Positions 53,323 to 64,000 of a stretch of 64,000 nucleotides of DNA are shown piece by piece (the stretch's first letter is position 1; the number at the start of each line of letters is the position of its first letter). Where the stretch lies: positions 9,818 to 73,817 of the forward strand of contig CAZJAL010000009.1 of assembly GCA_964544175.1 (NCBI GenBank). Reading direction: 5' to 3'. This DNA is from an uncultured Limnohabitans sp. Lineage in GTDB: Bacteria > Pseudomonadota > Gammaproteobacteria > Burkholderiales > Burkholderiaceae_C. A model generated the notes under the pieces. It made no database searches, was not told the origin of the DNA, and saw nothing but the letters and a program-made list of their open reading frames with translations. The position numbers and the translations under genes were made by a program.

Positions 53323-54117
53323 TTAACGCGTCTGTTTTAAAAATGCAATCAAGCGATCACGCCAAACTCGATAGCCTGAATCATTTGGGTGTAATCCATC
53401 GGTAAAGTAGTTTGAAATTTGTACGCCGGAGGTGTCTACAAAGGACGGGTACAGATTTAAATAGACGGTAAATTTTGAAAATTCACTGGTTCTTACCAAA
53501 GTTTCTAGTCGTTGATTCACCCGCAGCACAACGTCTTTGTTTTTGACGGCATCGTTGGTGGGTAAAAGCGATTGAACCACAATCCGTGCGTTAGGCTTTC
53601 GCGCATGCAGCGCACGTAAATTGGCCAGTACGCCTTGATAAATACTTTCCACCACAGGTTGTTCAGCAGCCCAGCTGTTGTTGATGCCCAGCATCACAAT
53701 CATGAATTCAGGATTCAGTGCGGGTGAGTCGAGTTGTCCCATACCCCCATCAGACTTAGGCAAGATGCGGTAGAGCACATGTTCTAGCCTGTCGCCTGAA
53801 ATGCCAATGTTCAGGGCAAAATTTTCTGTTCCAGGTGTGGCAAAGCTTTCGTCCCAAATTTTGCGGCCGTACTTCTGGCCACTGACCCAAGGGTTGTCGT
53901 CGAACAACCAAAAATCAGTAATGGAATCGCCTACAAAAAGTAACTTAACCGCGGCTAGATTACGAGATTGCTGAAGGTAAGTGTTGATTTCAAGTTGTCG
54001 TTTTTGCCAGTGCTCAACACGTGGTGCAGGTTGACTTGATGCAAAACTTTGCGCCACGCACAAACCGGAGTGACACAAAAAGCCTGCGAGGATTAAAGAG
54101 GTACAGAGTCGTTTCAT
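53323..54117 (-). CDS. SGNH/GDSL-family hydrolase, secreted
   Basis: 264 aa with signal peptide and blocks FVGDSITD, GISGD, GINN and DGLHPN. Confidence 0.8.
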   Translation of the reverse strand: MKRLCTSLILAGFLCHSGLCVAQSFASSQPAPRVEHWQKRQLEINTYLQQSRNLAAVKLLFVGDSITDFWLFDDNPWVSGQKYGRKIWDESFATPGTENFALNIGISGDRLEHVLYRILPKSDGGMGQLDSPALNPEFMIVMLGINNSWAAEQPVVESIYQGVLANLRALHARKPNARIVVQSLLPTNDAVKNKDVVLRVNQRLETLVRTSEFSKFTVYLNLYPSFVDTSGVQISNYFTDGLHPNDSGYRVWRDRLIAFLKQTR

Positions 54118-54420
54118 TGCGAGCTTAATGGGGTAAACAGTTCAAATTTTTTTAGTGCATTATTTTTGACATTTTCTCTGTCAAATCAGGGCTTGATATA
54201 GGTGACATCCCGCAAGGGTGTCATATACGCATACTTTAATATCTAGCGTGTGACACAAGTTCTGGCCTTGACGCTGTTTCGGTCTGCTCGCACATTGAAG
54301 AGCCAGCACAAGAAGGCACCGTGAATACGGCCAGCACTTCATAGAGGTGCTTTGACAAAGATAGGCACGTTACCGCTTCGATGACAAAAGTGCCCAACAA
54401 ATAATGCCTAGAATCTTGAA

Positions 54421-55113
54421 ATGAAACATTTGAATTTACAAGCCGTCATGATTGACCTAGACGGCACCATGGTCGACACCATCGGTGACTTTGAGGTTGC
54501 CTTAAACCGTGCCCTTTCAGACTTACAGGTTCCTACAGCAAACCGCACGCTCATTGAGCGCAGTATTGGCAAAGGATCTGAACATCTCATTCGCACGGTA
54601 CTCAAACACCAACTGGCACTGCCTGAAGTAGCTGGCAATGCGCTCGAGGTTGAGCAATTGTTTACGCCAGTATGGGAGCGCTACGAACACCATTACCTCA
54701 GCATCAATGGCGAGTTCTCCAATGTATTTCCTGGCGTCATGGAAGGCTTAGAACAAATCAAAGCATTGGGCTTGCCCATGGCCTGCCTCACAAACAAACC
54801 CGTGTCATTTACTTTGCCTCTCATCAGAGACAAAGGACTGGCGCCTTATTTTTCAAAAGTCTTTGGTGGCGACAGTTTTGAGCGCAAAAAACCAGACCCA
54901 TTGCCTTTGCTCAAAACGTGTGAGGCCTTGCAGAGCTTGCCCGCGCAAACCTTGATGGTGGGAGATTCCAGTAACGACGCGCAAGCGGCTGATGCGGCAG
55001 GCTGCCCAGTGGTGCTCATGACCTATGGTTACAACCATGGTGAGCCCATTCAAAATACGCCTGCCTTGGCTTGGTTAGATTCATTGAAGCAGCTGCAAAT
55101 CAGTAAGTCTTGA
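54421..55113 (+). CDS. gph: phosphoglycolate phosphatase (HAD superfamily)
   Basis: 230 aa with VMIDLDGTMVDT, LTNKP and GDSSNDAQAA. Confidence 0.85.
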   Translation: MKHLNLQAVMIDLDGTMVDTIGDFEVALNRALSDLQVPTANRTLIERSIGKGSEHLIRTVLKHQLALPEVAGNALEVEQLFTPVWERYEHHYLSINGEFSNVFPGVMEGLEQIKALGLPMACLTNKPVSFTLPLIRDKGLAPYFSKVFGGDSFERKKPDPLPLLKTCEALQSLPAQTLMVGDSSNDAQAADAAGCPVVLMTYGYNHGEPIQNTPALAWLDSLKQLQISKS

Positions 55114-55132
55114 AAGAGCTTGCTCAAAGAAA

Positions 55133-55162
55133 AACCCCTTGAGCATTGCTGCTGAAGGGGTT
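55133..55162. terminator. intrinsic terminator hairpin AACCCCTT...AAGGGGTT
   Basis: 8-bp stem with an inner AGCA/TGCT extension, read directly. The plus strand follows with a T-rich run after gph. The minus strand reads GGGGTTTTTCTTT, so it would also terminate the tRNA remnant. Confidence 0.6.
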
Positions 55163-55170
55163 CTTAATTT

Positions 55171-55219
55171 TGGCTCCTCGACCTGGGCTCGAACCAGGGA
55201 CCTACGGATTAACAGAAAA
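55171..55219 (-). repeat. 49-nt direct repeat copy 1 = 3' half of tRNA-Asn(GUU) (anticodon loop to CCA), not an intact tRNA
   Basis: The reverse complement reads TTTT-CTGTTAA-TCCGT-AGGTC-CCTGG-TTCGAGC-CCAGG-TCGAGGA-G-CCA. The D arm and the 5' strands of the acceptor and anticodon stems are absent on the 3' side of this plus-strand interval. Confidence 0.85.
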
Positions 55220-55273
55220 CTAGTCTCGTCAAAATACCATATAAATCAATAACTTATATGTATTTTTAATAAA

Positions 55274-55293
55274 CGTGTAATATTTCGTGTAAT
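55274..55293. repeat. direct repeats CGTGTAAT-N4-CGTGTAAT (12-nt period), arm-type recombinase site candidate
   Basis: Read directly, 55 nt inside the island from repeat copy 1. A similarly spaced pair lies inside the next element at 63681-63699. Confidence 0.4.
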
Positions 55294-55440
55294 TAAGTCA
55301 AAAGTTGCGTTTCGCAACTTTTCCGGAACTTTCATAGATTTTGCACTCAACAGCGTCACTCGACTGGCAAAAGTTAAGGGTTGTTTTGGTCGACAAGTGT
55401 CATTTCAAACGACAGTTGTAGGGTGTGTATAAATTTATCA

Positions 55441-55461
55441 ATCGTCTAGTAACAGGACGAT
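55441..55461. repeat. hairpin motif ATCGTCTAGTAACAGGACGAT (copy 1 of 2)
   Basis: Imperfect palindrome, stem ATCGTC/GACGAT. A near-identical copy in the same orientation lies at 63164-63184, on the other side of the efflux genes. Confidence 0.6.
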
Positions 55462-55642
55462 GATTTGTGTCTGTTGCTTCGTGAAGATATGAGATCTAAA
55501 GAACAGCCATTTGTGACTAATTTCACGAGTGGGTAAAGTTTTCAAGAAATCTTTAGCACCAGAGAAAATAATCTAAGGGCAATTTTAATGTGATGAGTAA
55601 GCTGAACACATAAGAATTTTTGTTCGGCTATACTTTCGACAA

Positions 55643-56011
55643 ATGAAGAAGCTTCTCGCAATAATCTTATTAGTACTGATGCCTTTGCAGTTCAGCATGG
55701 CAGCAGTATCTAGTTATTGCGAGCACGAAGCCAACTCAAGTGAAAGTCATCCTGGACATCATTCCCATCAACATGAGAATGAGAACAACGAAACTGTTGC
55801 TTCTGACAGCGACGCCAAAAAGACTTCATCAAGTTCAGGTGTGCATCATGATTGTGCATCTTGTCACATGGGATGTTCAGCTTTTGTTATCAACAACATA
55901 AGTTCGATCATCTCCAAATCCGATCAAACTATTCCTTTCGGCTATCTTAAAAACTCATCCAGAGTTAACTTCGAAAGACCTGAACGCCCTCAGTGGCTGT
56001 TACTCGCTTAA
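55643..56011 (+). CDS. small secreted His/Cys-rich protein, CzcI-like by position and composition
   Basis: 122 aa with signal peptide MKKLLAIILLVLMPLQFSMA, then SSYCEHEANSSESHPGHHSHQHENEN and HHDCASCHMGC. It lies directly upstream of the efflux genes. The family assignment is from memory only. Confidence 0.5.
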   Translation: MKKLLAIILLVLMPLQFSMAAVSSYCEHEANSSESHPGHHSHQHENENNETVASDSDAKKTSSSSGVHHDCASCHMGCSAFVINNISSIISKSDQTIPFGYLKNSSRVNFERPERPQWLLLA

Positions 56012-56032
56012 TCAGCGAGTCTCAGGTTTTTT
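56002..56032 (+). terminator. hairpin ACTCGCT-TAATC-AGCGAGT followed by T-run, possible attenuator between the first two island genes
   Basis: 7-bp stem spanning the stop codon of 55643-56011, with TTTTTT beginning 6 nt after the stem. Alternative pairings are available downstream (see findings). Confidence 0.35.
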
Positions 56033-56160
56033 CTACATACCTTAAATTCCCCTGAGAGCTTTTCTGCACAGCTTAGGCACAGCCGTGTAGTTTTGCTTAC
56101 AACCTTCGGGTTTGTTGCTCGCTGATTTCCGTTGGATTTTTTTACCATTGGAGATTAGTT

Positions 56161-57423
56161 ATGAATTGTGTTTTTAAAAAAATGCGGGTTTTTCAGGCAA
56201 TTCCCTATGCGATTGTTTTGAATTGCCTCATTGCCGGCGCTCAAGCGCAAACCACTGAACCACCGAGGATTGTCTCAACTTTGGCAGAAGTGTTCAATGT
56301 TGCTTGGCTTAGGCAACCCGAAGCTCGAGCATCAAGTTTGCGCAGAGAAGCATCGGTTGCTCAAATCAATGCAGCCAATATGTTGACTTCGGAATCACCA
56401 TCGTTCGAAATAAGTCAGCGTAGCGATAGGATGAACGGCAATCAAGGCAGTCGAGAGATTGAAATTGGATTTGCCGTGCCCTTGTGGCTTCCCGGTCAGC
56501 GAAGCGCTAGTCAACAATTAGCGGAGGTTGAAAGCAGTTTTGTAGACCACAAAATCCATGCGACCAAACTTCGCCTTGCCTCAACTGTACGAGAAGCTTG
56601 GTGGAATTGGCATCGTGCGACATTGGATCGCCAGGTCGCTCTTGATCATTTAAGCAATGCTCAAAAAATCTTTAGTGATGTTACTAAACGAAAAGCAGCA
56701 GGCGATCTTGCCAAGTCTGATCAATACCAGGCAGAAGGTGCTGTTGCAGCTGCCGAGGTTCTTGTTGCACAAGCTCAAGCTGAAGTGACTGCAGCAGCTG
56801 CAGCTTTGGCGGCACTTTCTGGAATCAGTGTGCAAGTCAAATCCACTGTCAATTTAGTTTCAGAAACGCTACCAAGTTCTACTCAGTCAAAAATACATCC
56901 AACCGTTGCGGAGTTGGAGGGTCGACTTGAGGTTTTGAAAAAAACTGCTGATTTAGTCAGCACGCAAAAAAGAGCGGCACCTGAACTCACTATCGCAACT
57001 TCTCGAGAGCGAGGAGCTTTCGGTGAACGGTACGGACAAACAGTCATGTTTGGTGTCCGGATTCCATTAGGGGATGGTGCGCGCTTTGATGCTCGTTTTT
57101 CTTCTGCAAGGGCAGAAGTTGTAGAAGCGGAATCACAGCTCAATATTGAGAGAGAAAAGCTCAAATCAGAACAGTCAGTAGCAGAATTTCGTGTTCAAGC
57201 AGCGCGGACTCAACTCAGGGCAATTGAAAGACGCTCATATTTAGCAAAAGAGTCTCGTCAATTTTTCGACAAGTCTTTTAGGCTCGGTGAAACTGATTTG
57301 CCAACAAGGTTGCGAGTGGAGTCAGAGGCTTTAGAGGCTGAGCGACAACTTGCCAATAGTCAAATCAATCTTGCAGCTGCCATTTCATCTTGGCGTCAGT
57401 CGTTAGGCTTACTGCCTGAATGA
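56161..57423 (+). CDS. TolC-family outer membrane efflux protein (CzcC/CusC-like)
   Basis: 420 aa with a signal peptide and two OEP repeats of long Ala/Gln/Glu-rich coiled helices. Confidence 0.85.
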   Translation: MNCVFKKMRVFQAIPYAIVLNCLIAGAQAQTTEPPRIVSTLAEVFNVAWLRQPEARASSLRREASVAQINAANMLTSESPSFEISQRSDRMNGNQGSREIEIGFAVPLWLPGQRSASQQLAEVESSFVDHKIHATKLRLASTVREAWWNWHRATLDRQVALDHLSNAQKIFSDVTKRKAAGDLAKSDQYQAEGAVAAAEVLVAQAQAEVTAAAAALAALSGISVQVKSTVNLVSETLPSSTQSKIHPTVAELEGRLEVLKKTADLVSTQKRAAPELTIATSRERGAFGERYGQTVMFGVRIPLGDGARFDARFSSARAEVVEAESQLNIEREKLKSEQSVAEFRVQAARTQLRAIERRSYLAKESRQFFDKSFRLGETDLPTRLRVESEALEAERQLANSQINLAAAISSWRQSLGLLPE

Positions 57424-57453
57424 TGCAAATATTTAAATACTTTAGGAAAAATA

Positions 57454-57990
57454 ATGAAGTTCATTAAATCAATTTTGGTTTCGCTTCTATCTGTGATGCT
57501 TACATTGTTGAGCATTTCAAGCGTTGCAGGACCTGGACATGATCATGGTGATTCAGCACCGCAAACCCTGGGTTCCTCATCTCCTAGATTCGTCGCTGAA
57601 TCTGAAGATTTGGAGTTAGTAGGAATCGTCAATGGAAAAAAAATTACGCTTTACTTAGATCGATTTCAAAGTAATACCCCAGTTAAGGATGCAGTTATCG
57701 AAATAGATATTGCAAGCGTCAAATACAAAGCCAATCAAATTAGTGACGGTGAATTTGAAATCACCCTCAAAGATTCTTTGATGCCGGGTGTCATAGCAAT
57801 CACTGCAACAGTCCAAGTCGGCGATTTGACTGATCTTTTAGTCGGGGAACTCGATTTGCATACTGATGAAGAAGCTTCAAAAAGTGAGCGTTCGTGGAAG
57901 TCACTAATCCAATGGATCGTCATTGGATTACTCGCATTGATTGCAATCGGACTATTTGTTCGTTCACGTCAAAAAATTAGCCTTGCATAA
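57454..57990 (+). CDS. hypothetical periplasmic protein with N-terminal GPGHDHGD motif and C-terminal TM anchor
   Basis: 178 aa: signal peptide, His motif, beta-rich body (LELVGIVNGKKITLYLDRF...), then WIVIGLLALIAIGLFV near the C-terminus. RBS AGGAAAA upstream. No family recognised. Confidence 0.6.
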   Translation: MKFIKSILVSLLSVMLTLLSISSVAGPGHDHGDSAPQTLGSSSPRFVAESEDLELVGIVNGKKITLYLDRFQSNTPVKDAVIEIDIASVKYKANQISDGEFEITLKDSLMPGVIAITATVQVGDLTDLLVGELDLHTDEEASKSERSWKSLIQWIVIGLLALIAIGLFVRSRQKISLA

Positions 57991-58001
57991 GGAATCACAA
58001 A

Positions 58002-59132
58002 ATGAAATTTAAAATTATTTTTGCAAAATTTAAAGTGCTTGCGCTCGTATCAGCTTTGGGTATGGCAAGTTACGTTTCGTTGGCAACAGCTGGAGAGGGT
58101 CATGATCACGGTGGATCTGCAGTAGCTCCAAACGCTAATGGTCCGCAACGCATGGCAGACGGAAGCGTTTTTTTGCCTAAGCCAGCACAACGTCAATTAA
58201 ACGTTCGAACAACAGTCGTAGACAGTTCTGACCTGCCACGATCCTATGAGCTAAACGGACGTGTCTTGATGGATCCAAATGCAGGTGGTATGGTTCAACC
58301 AATGAATGCGGGTAGAGTTGAACCCGGTCCTAATGGATTACCAAGTCTAGGTCAAGTTGTTAAAAAAGGTCAGGTTTTGGCTTACGTTGTGCCAGCTGTT
58401 TCTTCAGTAGACCAATCTAGCCAACTTGCACAATTTGCAGAAATTCGAGCAGCAAAATCACTTGCCGAAAAAAAGCTCGCTCGGTTAGTCGAGCTGACCG
58501 ACACAGTGCCTCGCAAAGAAATTGAGGCTGCTGAAAGTGAATTGGTTAGTTTGACTGAAAGATTGAATGCAATTAACGGAGGCTTACGAGGCAAAGAAGC
58601 TCTTGTTGCACCTGTTAGTGGTGTGATAGCTTCAGCAAATGTTGTTACTGGTCAAGTCGTTGATGCGCGCGAATTAATTTTTGAAGTCACTGACCCCAAA
58701 TACATAAGACTTGAGGCATTGACTTTCGATAGCTCACTAGCATCAAACATAGGTGGCGCTACTCTTGCGCTTGGTGAAAAGCGTATTCCTCTCCAGTTTA
58801 TTGGAGCTGCAAGAAGTTTGAGAGAGCTGGCTTTGCCCTTAAACTTTTTATCTAAAAGTCCTGAATTATTGGATCTAGCGATTGGTCAATCAGTCAAGAT
58901 TTACGTCCAATCAAAGCAAAAGATTCAGGGTATTGCAGTGCCGCAATCAGCTTTGATGAAAAACGCTGCAAACCAAAGTGTTGTGTGGATCAAAACTTCA
59001 GCTGAGAAATTTGAGCCTAGAACTGTCACCTTTGAGCCTTTAGATGGCACAAGAGTCACAGTTACTTCAGGTATCAAGTCCAGTGATCGTGTGGCAACGC
59101 AAGGCGCCACCCTTATCAACCAAGTTCGCTGA
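58002..59132 (+). CDS. RND efflux periplasmic adaptor (membrane fusion protein, CzcB/CusB-like)
   Basis: 376 aa: signal/anchor, GEGHDHGG motif, then barrel-sandwich, coiled-coil hairpin and beta-barrel pattern (GRVLMDPNAGGMV..., VSGVIASANVVTGQVV). Confidence 0.85.
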   Translation: MKFKIIFAKFKVLALVSALGMASYVSLATAGEGHDHGGSAVAPNANGPQRMADGSVFLPKPAQRQLNVRTTVVDSSDLPRSYELNGRVLMDPNAGGMVQPMNAGRVEPGPNGLPSLGQVVKKGQVLAYVVPAVSSVDQSSQLAQFAEIRAAKSLAEKKLARLVELTDTVPRKEIEAAESELVSLTERLNAINGGLRGKEALVAPVSGVIASANVVTGQVVDARELIFEVTDPKYIRLEALTFDSSLASNIGGATLALGEKRIPLQFIGAARSLRELALPLNFLSKSPELLDLAIGQSVKIYVQSKQKIQGIAVPQSALMKNAANQSVVWIKTSAEKFEPRTVTFEPLDGTRVTVTSGIKSSDRVATQGATLINQVR

Positions 59133-59144
59133 AGGAGCCTCTAT

Positions 59145-62100
59145 ATGTTTAAGTGGCTACTTGATAACAGCTTAGCTAACCGATTGCTGGTAATTATTGC
59201 TGGTGTCGTGTTAATGGCTTATGGCGCGTTCACACTAACCAAAACACCAGTTGATGTTTTTCCCGATCTCAATAAGCCAACCGTAACTATCATGACTGAA
59301 GCAGGAGGTATGGCTGCTGAAGAAGTTGAGCAGTTAATTACTTTTCCGCTTGAAACTACCATGAATGGCTTACCCGGTGTTGAGTCAATTAGATCAACTT
59401 CGTCTGCAGGACTTTCTTTTTTGTACGTGACCTTCAGCTGGGAAACTGAGATTTTTCGAGCTCGTCAGTTAGTTTCAGAGCGACTGTCCTCAATGGAGGA
59501 GGGCTTGGCTGCTGGTGTTCTTCCTCGAATGGGTCCCGTCAGTTCAATTATGGGTGAAATCATGCAAATTGCTATTCCAGTTGATTCTGAAAAGATCAGC
59601 GCAATGGCTGTTCGTGAATATGCAGATTGGGTTCTTCGCCCCCGATTGCTTTCGGTACCAGGTGTGGCTCAAGTCATACCAATTGGCGGAGAAGTACGTC
59701 AGTTTCAAGTTCAGCCTGATACTGCTCGTATGGCTACCCTCGGCATAACGCACGAGCAGATTGAGAGCGCATTGAAAGGTTTTTCTGCCAATACTTCAGG
59801 AGGATTTCTTGAATTAAATGGTCGTGAATATTTAATTCGAAACATTGGACGAACTTCTTTATTGGATGATCTCAAGAATTTAGCAATCACTGCAAAGAAT
59901 GGTCAGCCTATTCTTATGCGACAAATTGCTGAAGTTACATTTGCAGCTGCTCTCAAGAGAGGTGATGCAGGATTCGAAGGCAAGCCTGCAGTTATCTTGG
60001 GAATTCAGAAGCAGCCAACTGCAGACACAATAGCATTAACCAAATCAATTGAGGATGCTTTAGTTGGACTTAAAGCTTCTCTACCTGTAGGTATGGAGGA
60101 GCCTAGAGTTACTTTCCGTCAGGCTAGTTTCATTGAAGCTTCTATTACAACTTTACAAGGTAAGTTAATTGGTGCATCTATTTTCGTTGCACTTATTTTG
60201 TTTTTCTTTTTGGGAACGTTAAGACCTACAGTCATTGCTCTTACTGCTATTCCTGTTTCAATCTTTATTACTGCATTGGTCTTTAAATATTTTGGACTGT
60301 CTATCAACACGATGACACTTGGTGGTCTTGCAATTGCAATCGGTGGATTGGTAGACGATGCTGTAGTGGGTGTAGAAAATGTTTTAAGAAGATTGAAGGC
60401 TGACAGATCAAGCTCTAATCACACTCTTAAAAGTTCTCTTGAGATTGTGGCGACTGCAACGATGGAAGTGCGTTCCGCGATACTGTATGCAACAGTAATT
60501 ATCGTTCTTGTTTTTATTCCACTATTTGCACTACCTGGACTCGAAGGTAAATTATTTGTGCCCTTGGGTATTGCATTCATTGTTTCAACGCTGGCTTCTT
60601 TGATAGTTTCAGTCACAGTGACACCGGTGCTTAGCTTCTACTTGCTTCCGCAAATGAAGAATCTTGATCACGGTGACACCAAAGTGTTGGCTTGGTTGAA
60701 GGTGCGTTACAAGTCGAGTTTGCAGAGTGTTTTAGATCGACCCAAGGTGGCATTAACGTCAGCACTTACTGCAGTTCTATTTTCAGCAATCGCAGTACCG
60801 TTTTTTCCTACGACGTTTTTGCCTCCTTTTAATGAGGGTACTTTGCTGATTGGTCTGCGATTAAACCCAGGCGTAACGTTGACAGAGTCATCCGCTTTAG
60901 CGCGTCAAGCTGAGGTGCTTGTAAAACAAGTTCCGGAGGTAACTCACGTCGGTCGACGAAGCGGGCGAGCTGAGCTTGATGAGCATGCAGAAGGCGTTCA
61001 CGTTAGCGAATTAGATGTAGGACTGAAGCCAACTTCGGAACTTACACGAAGCATGGATGAAATCAAGTCAGACATTCGTTCACGTTTGGTTAATTTGCCT
61101 GCTGCATTAGAAATTGGTCAACCGATTTCTCATCGAATAGATCACATGCTTTCAGGCGTTCGTTCCCAAATTGCAATCAAAATTTTTGGGGAGGATCTGG
61201 ATACTTTAAGAGGTCAGGCTGACGAGTTGAGGTCAAAGCTTGGTGCCATACCCGGAATTGCTGATTTACAAATTGAAAAGCAAGTACTAGCACCACAGAT
61301 CAAAGTACGAGTTGACTATGCAGCAGCTGCACAATACGGTGTACCTGTTCCACAGGTTCTAAATGCACTACAAGCGATGGTTGAGGGTGAGAAAGTCACT
61401 CAAATAGTAGAAGGTAGTCGACGATTTGCGTTGGTCGTTAAGTTGCCGGAGTCTGCAAGAACTATTGAAGGGCTTGGGCAGATTTTGATAGAGACGCCAA
61501 ATGGTCGAATTCCATTATCAAAGATTGCAAGCATTGAGGACGGTGACGGACCCAATCAGATTAGTCGCGATGATGGCAAAAGACGAATCGTTTTGTCTGC
61601 AAACGCATCTGGACGTGCGTTATCAGAAATTGTGGCTGATATCCGTAGTGTGGTTAATGAAACAAAACTTCCTGAAGGTTATTTCATAACCTTGGGTGGA
61701 CAGTTTCAAGCACAAGAAGAGGCTTCTCGATTGGTCGGGCTTCTTTCTATCGTTTCATTGACATTGATGTTCGTAGTACTTTATAGCCGTTATAAGTCGT
61801 CAGTCTTATCAGCGTTGATCATGGTTAACATTCCACTTGCACTAGTAGGCGCAGTGATTGGACTTTGGATCTCTGGACAGCCCTTATCGGTTGCAGCGTT
61901 AGTGGGTTTCATTACGCTTGCTGGTATTTCTGTGCGAAATGGAATCTTGAAAGTTAGTCACTACATTAACTTAATGCGTTTTGAAGGCGAAGGTTTCGAT
62001 CAAAAAATGATTCTTCGCGGCTCACTCGAACGTTTAAGTCCTGTACTGATGACTGCCTTGGTGACAGCTTTCGCGCTCGCACCGCTATTGTTTGAGGCTG

Positions 62101-62264
62101 AACAACCTGGAACTGAAGTTTTGCACCCTGTTGCTGTTGTGATCTTTTCAGGGCTAATTAGCTCAACTTTGTTGGATACATTTCTTACGCCACTCATGTT
62201 CTGGTTGTATGGGCGTAAGTCTGTAGAGGCTTTGTTGCAAGATAAAGATGCAGAAGCTTTTTAA
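59145..62264 (+). CDS. heavy-metal-efflux RND pump, CusA/CzcA family
   Basis: 1039 aa with 12-TM RND topology and TM4 motif AIAIGGLVDDAVVGVEN. It is collinear over long stretches with my recollection of E. coli CusA. Confidence 0.95.
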   Translation: MFKWLLDNSLANRLLVIIAGVVLMAYGAFTLTKTPVDVFPDLNKPTVTIMTEAGGMAAEEVEQLITFPLETTMNGLPGVESIRSTSSAGLSFLYVTFSWETEIFRARQLVSERLSSMEEGLAAGVLPRMGPVSSIMGEIMQIAIPVDSEKISAMAVREYADWVLRPRLLSVPGVAQVIPIGGEVRQFQVQPDTARMATLGITHEQIESALKGFSANTSGGFLELNGREYLIRNIGRTSLLDDLKNLAITAKNGQPILMRQIAEVTFAAALKRGDAGFEGKPAVILGIQKQPTADTIALTKSIEDALVGLKASLPVGMEEPRVTFRQASFIEASITTLQGKLIGASIFVALILFFFLGTLRPTVIALTAIPVSIFITALVFKYFGLSINTMTLGGLAIAIGGLVDDAVVGVENVLRRLKADRSSSNHTLKSSLEIVATATMEVRSAILYATVIIVLVFIPLFALPGLEGKLFVPLGIAFIVSTLASLIVSVTVTPVLSFYLLPQMKNLDHGDTKVLAWLKVRYKSSLQSVLDRPKVALTSALTAVLFSAIAVPFFPTTFLPPFNEGTLLIGLRLNPGVTLTESSALARQAEVLVKQVPEVTHVGRRSGRAELDEHAEGVHVSELDVGLKPTSELTRSMDEIKSDIRSRLVNLPAALEIGQPISHRIDHMLSGVRSQIAIKIFGEDLDTLRGQADELRSKLGAIPGIADLQIEKQVLAPQIKVRVDYAAAAQYGVPVPQVLNALQAMVEGEKVTQIVEGSRRFALVVKLPESARTIEGLGQILIETPNGRIPLSKIASIEDGDGPNQISRDDGKRRIVLSANASGRALSEIVADIRSVVNETKLPEGYFITLGGQFQAQEEASRLVGLLSIVSLTLMFVVLYSRYKSSVLSALIMVNIPLALVGAVIGLWISGQPLSVAALVGFITLAGISVRNGILKVSHYINLMRFEGEGFDQKMILRGSLERLSPVLMTALVTAFALAPLLFEAEQPGTEVLHPVAVVIFSGLISSTLLDTFLTPLMFWLYGRKSVEALLQDKDAEAF

Positions 62265-62294
62265 TTGTTTTTTATTTTTTAAAAGGAAAATCTC

Positions 62295-62672
62295 ATGAAA
62301 CTGAAAACGTTAATTATTTGTTCAACTTTGCTTTTTACAAATATCGCATTCGCCGGTCCGGATCATGGTGAACATAAGCCTATGAAAGGTGGAGTTTTGG
62401 CAACTGTCAAAGACGTTGATTACGAGTTAGTTGCAAATGCCACATCAATTAGTCTCTATGTTCGTGATCATGGTAAGTCAGTTGACTTGTCAAAGGCGAG
62501 TGCAAAAATTACTTTACTCACCGGCAGTGATAAACAAGAGGTTGATCTTCAGCCAACGGCTGAAAAGTTGGAATCAAAAGGAAACTTTAAGGTTAGTGCG
62601 GGTACAAAGGTAGTTGCGATTATTAATTTGCAAGGCAAATCTGCAACCACTGCTCGTTTTGTATTGAAATAA
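62295..62672 (+). CDS. hypothetical periplasmic protein with N-terminal GPDHGEH motif
   Basis: 125 aa with signal peptide ...NIAFA. The beta-rich body (YELVANATSISLYVRDHGK...) resembles the body of the 57454-57990 product. RBS AAGGAAAA upstream. Confidence 0.6.
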   Translation: MKLKTLIICSTLLFTNIAFAGPDHGEHKPMKGGVLATVKDVDYELVANATSISLYVRDHGKSVDLSKASAKITLLTGSDKQEVDLQPTAEKLESKGNFKVSAGTKVVAIINLQGKSATTARFVLK

Positions 62673-62685
62673 TTAAAGGTCTTAT

Positions 62686-63060
62686 ATGAAAATTACTACA
62701 TTAGTCTGCGCCTTAGGCGCGTTGTTTTTGACTGCATGTTCTTCTGTTGGAGGGCTTAAGTTATCTAGTACCGAAAATGTTGAGGCAAAAGTTACTCGGC
62801 AGTTGTTTGCTACCGATCAAGTTGAAATTAAATTCAATGACAAGGTATACAGGGGCGACTGGAATGCAGTGTCTGCTTCTGATGAGCAAAAATCTAAAGT
62901 TTCATTTGAGCATCGAAAGCATCTCCATTCAGTTAAGACTTTACTGAAAGCTGCTGATGGTTCTGAGATGAATTGCCTATGGATTGGGCATTCTTATTCT
63001 GCTGACGGAAAATGCTCTGTAGGTGGACGAGAATTTTCAATATCAGTTAAAAGAGGTTAA
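62686..63060 (+). CDS. hypothetical lipoprotein
   Basis: 124 aa with lipobox LFLTAC|SS. No family recognised. It is the last gene of the island operon. Confidence 0.55.
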   Translation: MKITTLVCALGALFLTACSSVGGLKLSSTENVEAKVTRQLFATDQVEIKFNDKVYRGDWNAVSASDEQKSKVSFEHRKHLHSVKTLLKAADGSEMNCLWIGHSYSADGKCSVGGREFSISVKRG

Positions 63061-63079
63061 ATTTTTGATGTGATTGAGC

Positions 63080-63106
63080 GGAAGGTGAGAATAATTCTCT
63101 CCTTCC
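63080..63106 (+). terminator. hairpin GGAAGGTGAGA-ATAAT-TCTCTCCTTCC after the island operon
   Basis: 11-bp stem with one mismatch, read directly 20 nt after the stop at 63060. The T-tract is weak. Confidence 0.45.
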
Positions 63107-63163
63107 AGCTTTATGGTTAAGTAGAGGAAAATTTCAGATTCTAGTTATCAAAACTAACAACTG

Positions 63164-63184
63164 ATCGTCCAGTAACGGGACGAT
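63164..63184. repeat. hairpin motif ATCGTCCAGTAACGGGACGAT (copy 2 of 2)
   Basis: 7-bp stem ATCGTCC/GGACGAT, in the same orientation as 55441-55461 and differing at two positions. A second hairpin ACAAAGGT...ACCTTTGT follows at 63190-63213. Confidence 0.6.
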
Positions 63185-63554
63185 AGAGAACAAAGGTACT
63201 AAAGCACCTTTGTTCAATTCGGAACATTTACTGTGCAAACCCATCCCTGAGCTTGTTGGCAGCGGCTTCTATCTGTGTGTCTAACTCTCTTTCAGTTCAT
63301 CCTGTTTTAGCTAGTCAATTTCTTGATGTTTGGATCAAACGCTAGCGGATTGAGTTTGGCATTCCCCCAAATCAGTAGACACTTTTCAAAGCGAAGATTG
63401 ACGCTGCTGCCCAAGCTCTTGGCGCTTAGTTGAGCAAGATATTTGTAGTAACTTGCTTGATTAAAAATTGCATCTGCTGTGCAATACACGTGTAATATCA
63501 ACGAGCTAAAAGTTGCTCCCTGGCTCGTTGGGAGACAGAAAACTGTCTGGAAAA

Positions 63555-63586
63555 GAAAAAAGCACTGAATAAATCAGTGCTTTTTA
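63555..63586. terminator. bidirectional intrinsic terminator AGCACTGA-ATAAA-TCAGTGCT flanked by A- and T-runs
   Basis: Perfect 8-bp stem read directly. It lies immediately 3' (on the minus strand) of the second tRNA-Asn fragment. Confidence 0.6.
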
Positions 63587-63589
63587 GAG

Positions 63590-63638
63590 TGGCTCCTCGA
63601 CCTGGGCTCGAACCAGGGACCTACGGATTAACAGAAAA
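63590..63638 (-). repeat. 49-nt direct repeat copy 2 = 3' half of tRNA-Asn(GUU), again without the tRNA 5' half
   Basis: Identical to 55171-55219 by base-by-base reading. It is followed by TATTTGTTATTTAAATTG, which cannot form the D arm or the anticodon-stem 5' strand. Confidence 0.85.
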
Positions 63639-63680
63639 TATTTGTTATTTAAATTGTTGATTTAAAACAACTATTTTTTG

Positions 63681-63699
63681 GTGCGTATTATAGTGCGTA
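63681..63699. repeat. direct repeats GTGCGTA-N5-GTGCGTA (12-nt period), with a related TGCGTAAT at 63740-63747
   Basis: Read directly, 43 nt inside the second AT-rich element. The arrangement is analogous to 55274-55293. Confidence 0.4.
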
Positions 63700-63869
63700 G
63701 TTAAGATGCAGTTTTAAACAATGCAATAGAGTTAATTACTGCGTAATTACAGTTGATGCTTAAATCTTCGTAGGTGAGCGATTGAGTGCTTGGTTTCGGA
63801 TTACATGCCGGTAGGTGGTTGCCGCTGTTGAATAAACTTTGGGGTCTTCAAGGATATTCACGTATTTAA

Positions 63870-64000
63870 ATGCTTGTAATCCAAAAAATCTCTTCTTGGG
63901 CTAAAGCACTCAAATTAGATGTGTTGGCGTTGTGGTTAGCTCTGAAACAACCAAAGATGCCTTTCTGGGCAAAAGTCGTTTGCTTTGTCGCAGTGGCGTA
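63870..64000 (+). CDS. DUF1232/YkvA-like membrane protein (5' part only, runs off right edge)
   Basis: My own translation from ATG 63870 gives MLVIQKISSWAKALKLDVLALWLALKQPKMPFWAKVVCFVAVA. This resembles the YkvA-family N-terminus (conserved ...P..PW.AK......Y). Confidence 0.5.
   Translation, partial: MLVIQKISSWAKALKLDVLALWLALKQPKMPFWAKVVCFVAVA

Follow-up and report, generated by a model that had tools for sequence, protein, structure and literature searches.

The right part of a 64,000-nt stretch of DNA from an uncultured Limnohabitans sp. (contig CAZJAL010000009.1, positions 9,818 to 73,817; hereafter the window) carries two directly repeated 3' parts of a tRNA-Asn gene that bracket a heavy-metal efflux operon. 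The left chromosomal flank is represented by the core gene gph, whose product is 95% identical at the amino acid level to that of a Limnohabitans metagenome-assembled genome (MAG); all near relatives belong to Limnohabitans or other Comamonadaceae. Downstream of gph lie a hairpin terminator, the first tRNA-Asn half, an islet of about 8.4 kb (islet A), the second half and, adjoining it, a further element (element B) that runs beyond the window. Read in the sense of the tRNA, the order is right end, element B, P arm of element B, core and 3' half, second terminator, P' arm of islet A, czc operon (antisense), P arm of islet A, core and 3' half, native terminator and gph, with P and P' denoting the two types of arm found next to the repeated core. 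The features are listed in Table 1; sequences used for comparison are designated by L and a number.

The repeat TGGCTCCTCGACCTGGGCTCGAACCAGGGACCTACGGATTAACAGAAAA is present in exactly two copies on the plus strand (55171-55219 and 63590-63638). No other copy was found in the 64-kb window with up to three mismatches allowed, and no match appeared in any of 100 dinucleotide shuffles. The repeat measures exactly 49 bp, the flanks diverging on either side of both copies. Its nucleotides 1-45 are the reverse complement of positions 32-76 of the Burkholderiales tRNA-Asn(GUU); this 45-nt block is present in more than 119 Burkholderiales genome stretches and is identical to the 3' part of the tRNA-Asn(GTT) genes called by ARAGORN in L305, L298, L299, L308, and L309. 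The intact 76-nt gene of L305 consists of TCCTCGATAGCTCAGTCGGTAGAGCGCCGGA followed by CTGTTAATCCGTAGGTCCCTGGTTCGAGCCCAGGTCGAGGAGCCA. Relative to this gene, the repeat begins on the minus strand at C32, where the anticodon loop starts, and runs through the encoded CCA; the terminal four nucleotides of the 49-mer, AAAA (TTTT in the tRNA sense), stand in place of the CGGA of the anticodon stem. ARAGORN detected no tRNA gene in the whole 64 kb, and an Rfam scan of positions 54000-64000 gave no tRNA matches, as expected because the genes are truncated. The original prediction, made from the letters of the window, had recognized in this 49-mer two non-intact copies of tRNA-Asn from the anticodon loop to the CCA, and all of this is borne out; the repeat is linked to tRNA genes and is not a dispersed sequence unrelated to them. 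The possibility that a half together with its conserved arm forms a functional tRNA-like RNA was rejected, since the 5' flank cannot form the acceptor or D arms; the negative ARAGORN and Rfam searches also contradict it.

Table 1. Features of the tRNA-Asn locus and its two insertions (positions in the window; IHF, integration host factor; RND, resistance-nodulation-division).
Feature	Position	Strand	Remarks
gph, HAD-family phosphatase, core gene of the left chromosomal flank	54421-55113	+	Pfam HAD_2, Hydrolase
Native hairpin terminator AAAAACCCCTTGAGCATTGCTGCTGAAGGGGTTCTTAATTT, common to gph and tRNA-Asn	55130-55170		Precedes the intact tRNA-Asn in L305, L298, L299, L308
tRNA-Asn 3' part, copy 1	55171-55215	-	Positions 32-76 including CCA; matches ARAGORN-called genes
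P-type arm of islet A	55216-55340		Aligns with arms of 44 other loci, 78% mean column identity
P arm of islet A, IHF-consensus site AATCAATAACTTA	55244-55256		AAAA adjoins the core
P arm of islet A, two direct CGTGTAAT repeats	55274-55281, 55286-55293		
P arm of islet A, palindrome AAAAGTTGCGTTTCGCAACTTTT	55300-55322		Covaries among 45 genomes
21-bp 7-7-7 palindromic motif ATCGTCTAGTAACAGGACGAT, left copy	55441-55461	+	Direct orientation with the right copy, czc operon between
czcI-like His/Cys-rich small protein, 122 aa	55643-56011	+	NCBIfam NF045614 CzcI, 98.8 bits, just under the cutoff of 100
Outer-membrane factor, CzcC/TolC-like, 420 aa	56161-57423	+	Pfam OEP, 98.7 bits
Secreted/membrane protein, 178 aa, N-terminal GPGHDHG	57454-57990	+	Matches no family
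Membrane-fusion adaptor, CzcB-like, 376 aa	58002-59132	+	Pfam HlyD_3, HlyD_D23
RND heavy-metal-efflux pump, CusA/CzcA family, 1039 aa	59145-62264	+	TIGR00914, 786.9 bits (cutoff 701.45); Pfam ACR_tran, 832 bits
Two small secreted proteins/lipoproteins, 125 aa and 124 aa, operon end	62295-63060	+	Match no family
21-bp palindromic motif ATCGTCCAGTAACGGGACGAT, right copy	63164-63184	+	Behind it lie a hairpin and what is left of the 3' end of a small reverse-strand ORF (63186-63290)
P'-type arm of islet A	63356-63589		84-87% identical to the segment ahead of tRNA-Asn halves in L062, L272, L244
P' arm, paired arm-type repeats GTGCAATACACGTGTAAT	63479-63496		
P' arm, own hairpin terminator	63556-63585		Directly before tRNA half copy 2
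tRNA-Asn 3' part, copy 2	63590-63634	-	Left flank element-type, right flank another arm
P-type arm of element B, other arm family	63635-63780		AAAA; IHF-consensus site 63650-63662 (reverse strand); direct repeats GTGCGTATTATAGTGCGTA 63681-63699
Element B, first cargo gene, DUF1232 protein	63870-64000	+	Runs beyond the window end

The sequences that adjoin the halves belong to a family widespread in freshwater Burkholderiales. A search of the GTDB species representatives for the half followed by AAA yielded 83 stretches, in which 79 junctions were scored; they come mostly from MAGs of Limnohabitans and related Burkholderiales, with several from Polynucleobacter, Rhodoferax, and Curvibacter. The breakpoint lies at C32 in both copies of the window and in about 80 other junctions, and the 125-150 nt past it are conserved, while the cargo further out is very diverse. 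An alignment of 45 arms picked for the CGTGTAAT motif, including positions 55207-55340 of the window, has a mean column identity of 78%. Next to the core these arms read AAA-N-CCAGGCTCGTC; they further contain an invariant TAT..A.CAA....TTA block that is compatible with WATCAANNNNTTR, the consensus of the integration host factor (IHF), and two direct CGTGTAAT repeats 12 nt apart. Over all readable arms, a double repeat of the GTGTAAT type is present in 62 of 70. A palindrome of 7-10 bp with a 3-nt loop is 84% paired, compared with 26-45% when one side is slid, and shows 63 double changes versus 20.7 in shuffles, none of 500 shuffles reaching 63. In columns 94-116 of the alignment, compensatory pairs such as GTTGCA/TGCAAC, GTTACA/TGTAAC, and TTGTAA/TTACAA occur across the 45 genomes; a terminator, an operator or a recombination accessory site are candidate roles for this palindrome. 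One contig in IMG/VR carries the arm repeat.

Within the 64-kb window the CGTGTAAT octamer occurs three times, always in the ends of islet A (55274, 55286, and 63489). Matches to the IHF consensus number nine, two of them located 29 nt and 16 nt from the two cores. The arm of element B, of a different family, has the same layout as the P arm of islet A, with the IHF-type site on the opposite strand.

The occupancy of this site varies among relatives. The empty site is represented by L305, in which the end of gph (its last 153 nt) is followed by the same terminator, an intact single tRNA-Asn, a VF530 gene and ordinary metabolic genes; identity to the window is 97% over a 198-nt match that takes in this gph end, the terminator and the 3' part of the tRNA. 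The tRNA-Asn is also intact behind the same terminator in L308, L298, and L299. These contigs are among 11 recovered when public metagenomes were searched for the native terminator together with the half. In L304, L301, and L306 the same gph end and terminator precede the half, to which other arms and cargo are joined, and in L302 a related gph is separated by about 1.2 kb of other sequence from the same terminator, the half and a different arm. L127 has a HigBA-like islet between two halves, the second of which is followed by an arm 86% identical to positions 55220-55321 and by genes for MerR and a cation-diffusion facilitator (CDF). The nearest genome, L126, contains gph, a GDPD-like gene, the terminator with a 24-nt tRNA remnant, and a 0.9-kb toxin-antitoxin-like islet; at its right end the terminator recurs, here with a tRNA-Asn that reaches beyond the anticodon loop (TCCGGCG) and of which 52 nt are present before the contig stops. 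Since the empty site and different islets are found at one breakpoint, the tRNA-Asn site is a hot spot whose breakpoint is fixed and whose contents differ from strain to strain. Copy 1 in the window would be the original 3' half after displacement, its junction with the arm on its right being of the attR type.

In L126 (11947-13050) the terminator and the 24-nt tRNA 3' end are duplicated around a P-loop (zeta-toxin/AAA-like) gene and a small partner; this repeat reaches outside the tRNA and does not fit a simple duplication of an attachment (att) site. L273, considered as a complete small element, turned out to be filled with insertion sequence (IS) transposases and was uninformative.

Complementary junctions containing the 5' half of the gene were found in two sequences. 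In L311 (1830-2030) a VF530 gene, the tRNA promoter and the 5' half through CTGTTAA are followed by a non-tRNA arm, with an IHF-type site, ATTACACG-type repeats and a palindrome, and the 3' half is missing; ARAGORN called no tRNA at this junction. In L065 (6714-6751) a 5'-half remnant beginning with TTAACAG lies directly behind a DUF3299 gene, a fusion that implies loss of the MFS-GDSL-gph block present in the window. Both junctions confirm the anticodon loop as the point of exchange, and that of L311 shows that some members of the family split the tRNA gene instead of restoring it. Because of this, an intact tRNA-Asn to the right of the window is plausible and not required, and the statement of the original prediction that one must lie there was too strong. 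In L309, from the same metagenome series, the intact tRNA-Asn beside VF530 has its CCA exactly at the contig end, the end point expected of a branching assembly graph at a variable island. L309 and L311 are short contigs reached from the VF530 flank of L305, and neither could be linked to the strain of the window.

The G+C content of islet A (0.426 at 55220-63589) is lower than that of the sequence to its left (0.502 at 1-55170), and that of the visible part of element B is lower still (0.376 at 63639-64000). Seven co-directional ORFs of islet A form one operon, and all code for efflux components or small proteins matching no family. The pump scores above the curated cutoff for CusA/CzcA-type RND proteins and is accompanied in the same operon by genes for an adaptor and an outer-membrane factor; the CzcB-like adaptor itself remains below the cutoffs of the NCBIfam models RND_mfp (80 bits, cutoff 94.9) and CzcB/NccB (62.2 bits, cutoff 319.3). 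As judged from these family matches, the cargo is probably a heavy-metal efflux operon of the czcI-C-x-B-A type. The like motifs GPGHDHG, GEGHDHG, and GPDHGEH are located just past the signal peptides of three operon proteins (57454-57990, 58002-59132, and 62295-62672); together with the His/Cys-rich CzcI-like protein (55643-56011), they suggest a shared periplasmic metal-binding tag.

Domain searches revealed no integrase, excisionase or transposase among the ORFs of islet A, and no replication or transfer genes are present in it. Remnants of recombinases were likewise not found by tblastn with four recombinase families in the window and 2.6 kb beyond it (all E > 0.3). The original prediction of an AT-richer 8.4-kb islet with a single cargo operon and no recombinase, followed immediately after copy 2 by a second AT-rich element with a new cargo gene, therefore stands in all its parts, the second element being marked by its own arm. 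Beyond the DUF1232 gene, element B as seen in contig L003 carries LysE, cupin and truncated GNAT genes.

Tyrosine recombinases are encoded beside related arms elsewhere. A gene for a 463-aa enzyme, with G-T-S rather than G-H ahead of the catalytic Y, begins about 125 nt from the tRNA 3' end and adjoins P' arms at eight loci (L056, L122, L224, L248, L249, L262, L289, and L295). A 342-aa enzyme (PF00589, 44 bits, with a SAM-like N-domain) is encoded beside P arms, about 190-1,200 nt from the core and reading toward it, at six loci (L216, L278, L293, L235, L225, and L223). Such genes are rare overall: a recombinase was found within 2 kb in 5 of 47 P-side flanks and in 3 of 50 P'-side flanks. On the 107-kb contig L056 (OZ248546.1; 3357-6285) the gene for the 463-aa integrase directly follows an intact tRNA-Asn, and a gene for a homologue of the 342-aa recombinase, 359 aa in length, directly precedes this tRNA gene; the arrangement might represent a composite or extrachromosomal form of these elements.

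The locus is best explained as an additive array of genomic islands at tRNA-Asn(GUU) in a Limnohabitans-like freshwater betaproteobacterium, built by repeated site-specific integration, a reading to which we assign a probability of about 0.8. The ancestral order would have been gph, terminator, tRNA-Asn on the minus strand and the VF530 gene. Islet A would have entered with an attachment site (attP) composed of a P arm, a core corresponding to the anticodon loop with the entire tRNA 3' part, a terminator that the islet itself supplied, and a P' arm. Recombination with the chromosomal tRNA gene inside the anticodon loop would have displaced the original 3' half (55171-55215), leaving it joined to the P arm of islet A, while the gene was rebuilt with the 3' half brought by the islet. 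Element B, with unrelated cargo, probably entered the reconstituted gene later, so that copy 2, which once completed the gene, would have been displaced in its turn and joined to the P arm of element B. Because the directly repeated cores keep the P arm on one side and the P' arm on the other, islet A, as a CIME-like cassette (CIME, cis-mobilizable element), could be excised as a circle joining position 63589 to 55220 across one half; a cognate tyrosine integrase would have to act in trans, probably with IHF and an excisionase. The original prediction had proposed successive integrations at one tRNA site that left a recombinase-less inner islet, and had called for a comparison with relatives lacking it. 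Its reading is strengthened by the empty site of L305, which shows that the arrangement of the window is not without empty variants among relatives, by other occupants at the same nucleotide, by arms at both ends of the islet and by recombinases beside such arms elsewhere.

Several points weigh against this interpretation. Neither an intact tRNA-Asn nor an integrase gene was found in the approximately 2.6 kb to the right of the window, all assemblies ending at about 66.5-66.6 kb. For this exact strain, no circular excision product and no variant free of the islet turned up, and the contigs from the terminator-plus-half search included neither a gph-linked half joined to the arm of element B, as after deletion of islet A, nor a circular junction. 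The 463-aa and 342-aa families are candidates for recognizing the CGTGTAAT arms, and the putative IHF and arm-type sites were assigned by consensus and position alone. The invariance of the CGTGTAAT columns in the alignment results in part from selecting sequences by that motif. Moreover, what is called P' could in some lineages be partly native sequence downstream of the tRNA; a P'-like segment lies directly behind ordinary metabolic genes in L272 and L244.

The right end of the array was followed as far as the assemblies allow, through contigs that encode gph or the last complete protein of islet A. Element B abuts islet A, and no integrase gene was found in it from 63639 to about 66600 (about 3 kb, to the contig ends); a search through its cupin gene led only to unrelated contexts. 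All assemblies stop just behind the GNAT ORF, which ends after 38 codons (L003, 13690-13924, corresponding to about 66375-66609 of the window). This common end suggests a repeated or strain-variable insertion there.

A 7.6-kb segment spanning the operon (55544-63135) is 99.4% identical in the unrelated backbones of L001, L005, and L002 (2859-10449), where it is free of tRNA halves, preceded by CDF and MerR genes and followed by genes for tyrosine recombinases of 190-202 aa. Such identity in unrelated contexts indicates very recent horizontal movement of the czc module between backbones. It would also fit an alternative in which islet A was never an autonomous integrative element and a second recombination system, acting at the 21-bp palindromes, placed the czc operon as a cassette into a near-empty scaffold that already reached from arm to arm. 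The palindromes stand in direct orientation on both sides of the operon, and the motif recurs in freshwater Burkholderiales, in L002 and L316 at 28-40 nt past the stop codons of the 190-202-aa (FimB-sized) tyrosine recombinase genes; in L002 (1155-1345) an unoccupied version has the left flank, motif and right flank contiguous. The breakpoints of identity with L001 and L002 (55544, and 63135 or 63289), however, do not coincide with the motifs, and for this reason a second layer of recombination at the palindromes is put forward as a hypothesis only. Furthermore, the small recombinase is absent from the window, L001, L005, and L225 have the recombinase and no motif within reach, and the motif could equally well be an operator or terminator element. 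We consider this origin of the islet quite unlikely, and it would be compatible with the outer accretion model rather than a replacement for it.

The 21-bp motif ATCGTCNAGTAACNGGACGAT is also found in L002 at 1218, 10479, 14854, and 16370 and in L316 at 846 and 2736, in many cases with a hairpin behind it and then the last part of a small ORF terminating in KLRDGFAQ; the motif may serve as a recombination site or as an operator. A more far-reaching picture, which we regard as speculative and rather unlikely, is an integron-like cassette economy at tRNA-Asn, with islets that mostly lack a recombinase but retain strongly conserved, seemingly functional arm sites being shuffled in trans by rare integrase-bearing elements and a nested layer of 21-bp palindromes served by the 190-202-aa recombinases. 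If true, this nested layer would account for the 99.4% identical czc module in unrelated backbones.

Alternatively, the halves could descend from two tRNA-Asn genes that stood in tandem in an ancestor and were truncated independently of each other by unrelated insertions or deletions rather than by integrase-mediated accretion. Many Burkholderiales do have two or three tRNA-Asn genes in tandem, 90-150 bp apart, and the duplicated terminator and 24-nt tRNA fragment of L126 misfit a simple att duplication. Independent truncation nevertheless appears highly improbable given that both copies and the other junctions surveyed break at the same base, C32, that arms of the same architecture lie behind both copies, that the close relative L305 has a single gene at the locus, and that copy 2 is bordered on its left by an element-type arm, complete with a terminator, rather than by an inter-tRNA spacer.

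Misassembly, in the form of a chimeric join of strains or loci at the 49-bp repeat, is suggested by the fact that the window matches metagenome contigs (e.g., JACCDT010197402.1) and by the short contigs L210, L211, L212, and L214, which stop inside or just past the half as in a branching graph, but it can hardly be upheld against the independent assembly, in several samples, of the order gph, half, islet, half, element B. Where the two overlap, L003 and the window are 100% identical, and the same arrangement is present at 99.97-100% identity in the independent metagenome assemblies L003, L004, and L006; both copies with the same flanks were also recovered in L206 (JACCDT010197402.1, 122,675 bp), L207, and L209. 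A chimeric join is unlikely because several assemblies independently give this arrangement. Contig names of the form k141_* in ENA suggest, as far as names allow, a k-mer of 141, longer than the repeat, and strain heterogeneity at a hot spot would be expected to interrupt contigs at the half.

The locus shows, at the level of single nucleotides, the way in which Limnohabitans and its relatives, abundant bacterioplankton of fresh waters, hold and probably exchange a heavy-metal efflux operon. A family of tRNA-Asn attachment sites, widespread and recognizable by the core, the IHF-type site, the paired repeats of the arms and the covarying palindrome, is defined as well; these features could help to delimit islands in MAGs, where assemblies typically break. 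A full-text literature search for genomic islands of Limnohabitans at tRNA genes with an integrase returned nothing relevant; therefore the tRNA-Asn element family itself may be undescribed, although elements of its kind are known. The current understanding of genomic-island formation is not changed, the mechanism being that of the established accretion and additive-island model, of which this is a real but ordinary case.

Among known att sites, those of the lambda/P4 type consist of a core flanked by arms, and tyrosine integrases that target the anticodon loop of tRNA genes form a recognized class; sublocation classes of tRNA targeting were reportedly distinguished by Williams in 2002. The locus resembles such an attP: the core lies in the anticodon loop and the identity continues as far as the tRNA 3' end, a putative IHF site is about 20-40 bp from the core, and both arms have what appear to be paired direct arm-type repeats 55-80 bp off. 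It differs in the additional covarying palindrome and in the absence of an integrase gene from islet A. As in the anticodon-loop class, the block of identity extends from the loop to the 3' end, and the complementary 5'-half junctions of L311 and L065 end at CTGTTAA; an own integrase beside the att arm, by contrast, is found neither in islet A nor in the visible part of element B.

Cis-mobilizable elements (CIMEs) and tandem accretion of ICESt1/ICESt3-type elements have been described in Streptococcus (Pavlovic 2004 and Bellanger 2011, as summarised in PMC5704250). With respect to that summary, islet A matches the CIME and tandem-accretion model: it is flanked by att-type sequences (identical repeats of 45/49 nt and conserved P and P' arms), all seven of its ORFs code for efflux or small proteins and none for a recombinase, and its excision would need the recombinase of another element. 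Unlike the streptococcal elements, which are integrated at the 3' end of fda or of tRNA-Lys, it resides in the anticodon loop of tRNA-Asn of a freshwater betaproteobacterium, lacks conjugation genes, is known from sequence alone, and has no adjoining partner in the visible sequence, i.e., no integrative and conjugative element (ICE) or integrative and mobilizable element (IME) with a cognate integrase. In Prochlorococcus, tycheposons are cargo elements at island tRNA genes, with degenerate remnants and, as at the locus described here, with nothing but a partial tRNA between neighbours; tRNA-Asn is never named in the main text of that preprint (10.1101/2020.12.28.424599). Tycheposons carry a tyrosine recombinase of their own clade or a large serine recombinase and usually a replication module, both of which are missing from islet A. 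Genes for transfer are missing as well, and islet A is therefore no tycheposon, ICE or IME.

Additive flexible genomic islands at tRNA genes offer a further parallel. The Alteromonas metal-resistance island at tRNA-Phe contains czc cassettes and a "tell-tale" partial tRNA repeat (PMC4898812), and fGI-2, an island of the freshwater methylophilacean 'Ca. Methylopumilus', has recurring end repeats of tRNA-Lys (PMC10872708). Like these islands, the tRNA-Asn locus is a tRNA hot spot with different cassettes per strain, among them czc-type efflux and toxin-antitoxin cassettes, and near-identical cassettes occur in divergent backgrounds; the site is empty in L305 or otherwise filled in L304, L301, L306, L302, L126, and L127, and a partial tRNA repeat marks the boundaries. 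It is distinguished from them by the use of tRNA-Asn, by its occurrence in another lineage, by a 45-nt repeat that starts in the anticodon loop, and by a conserved arm of about 125 nt.

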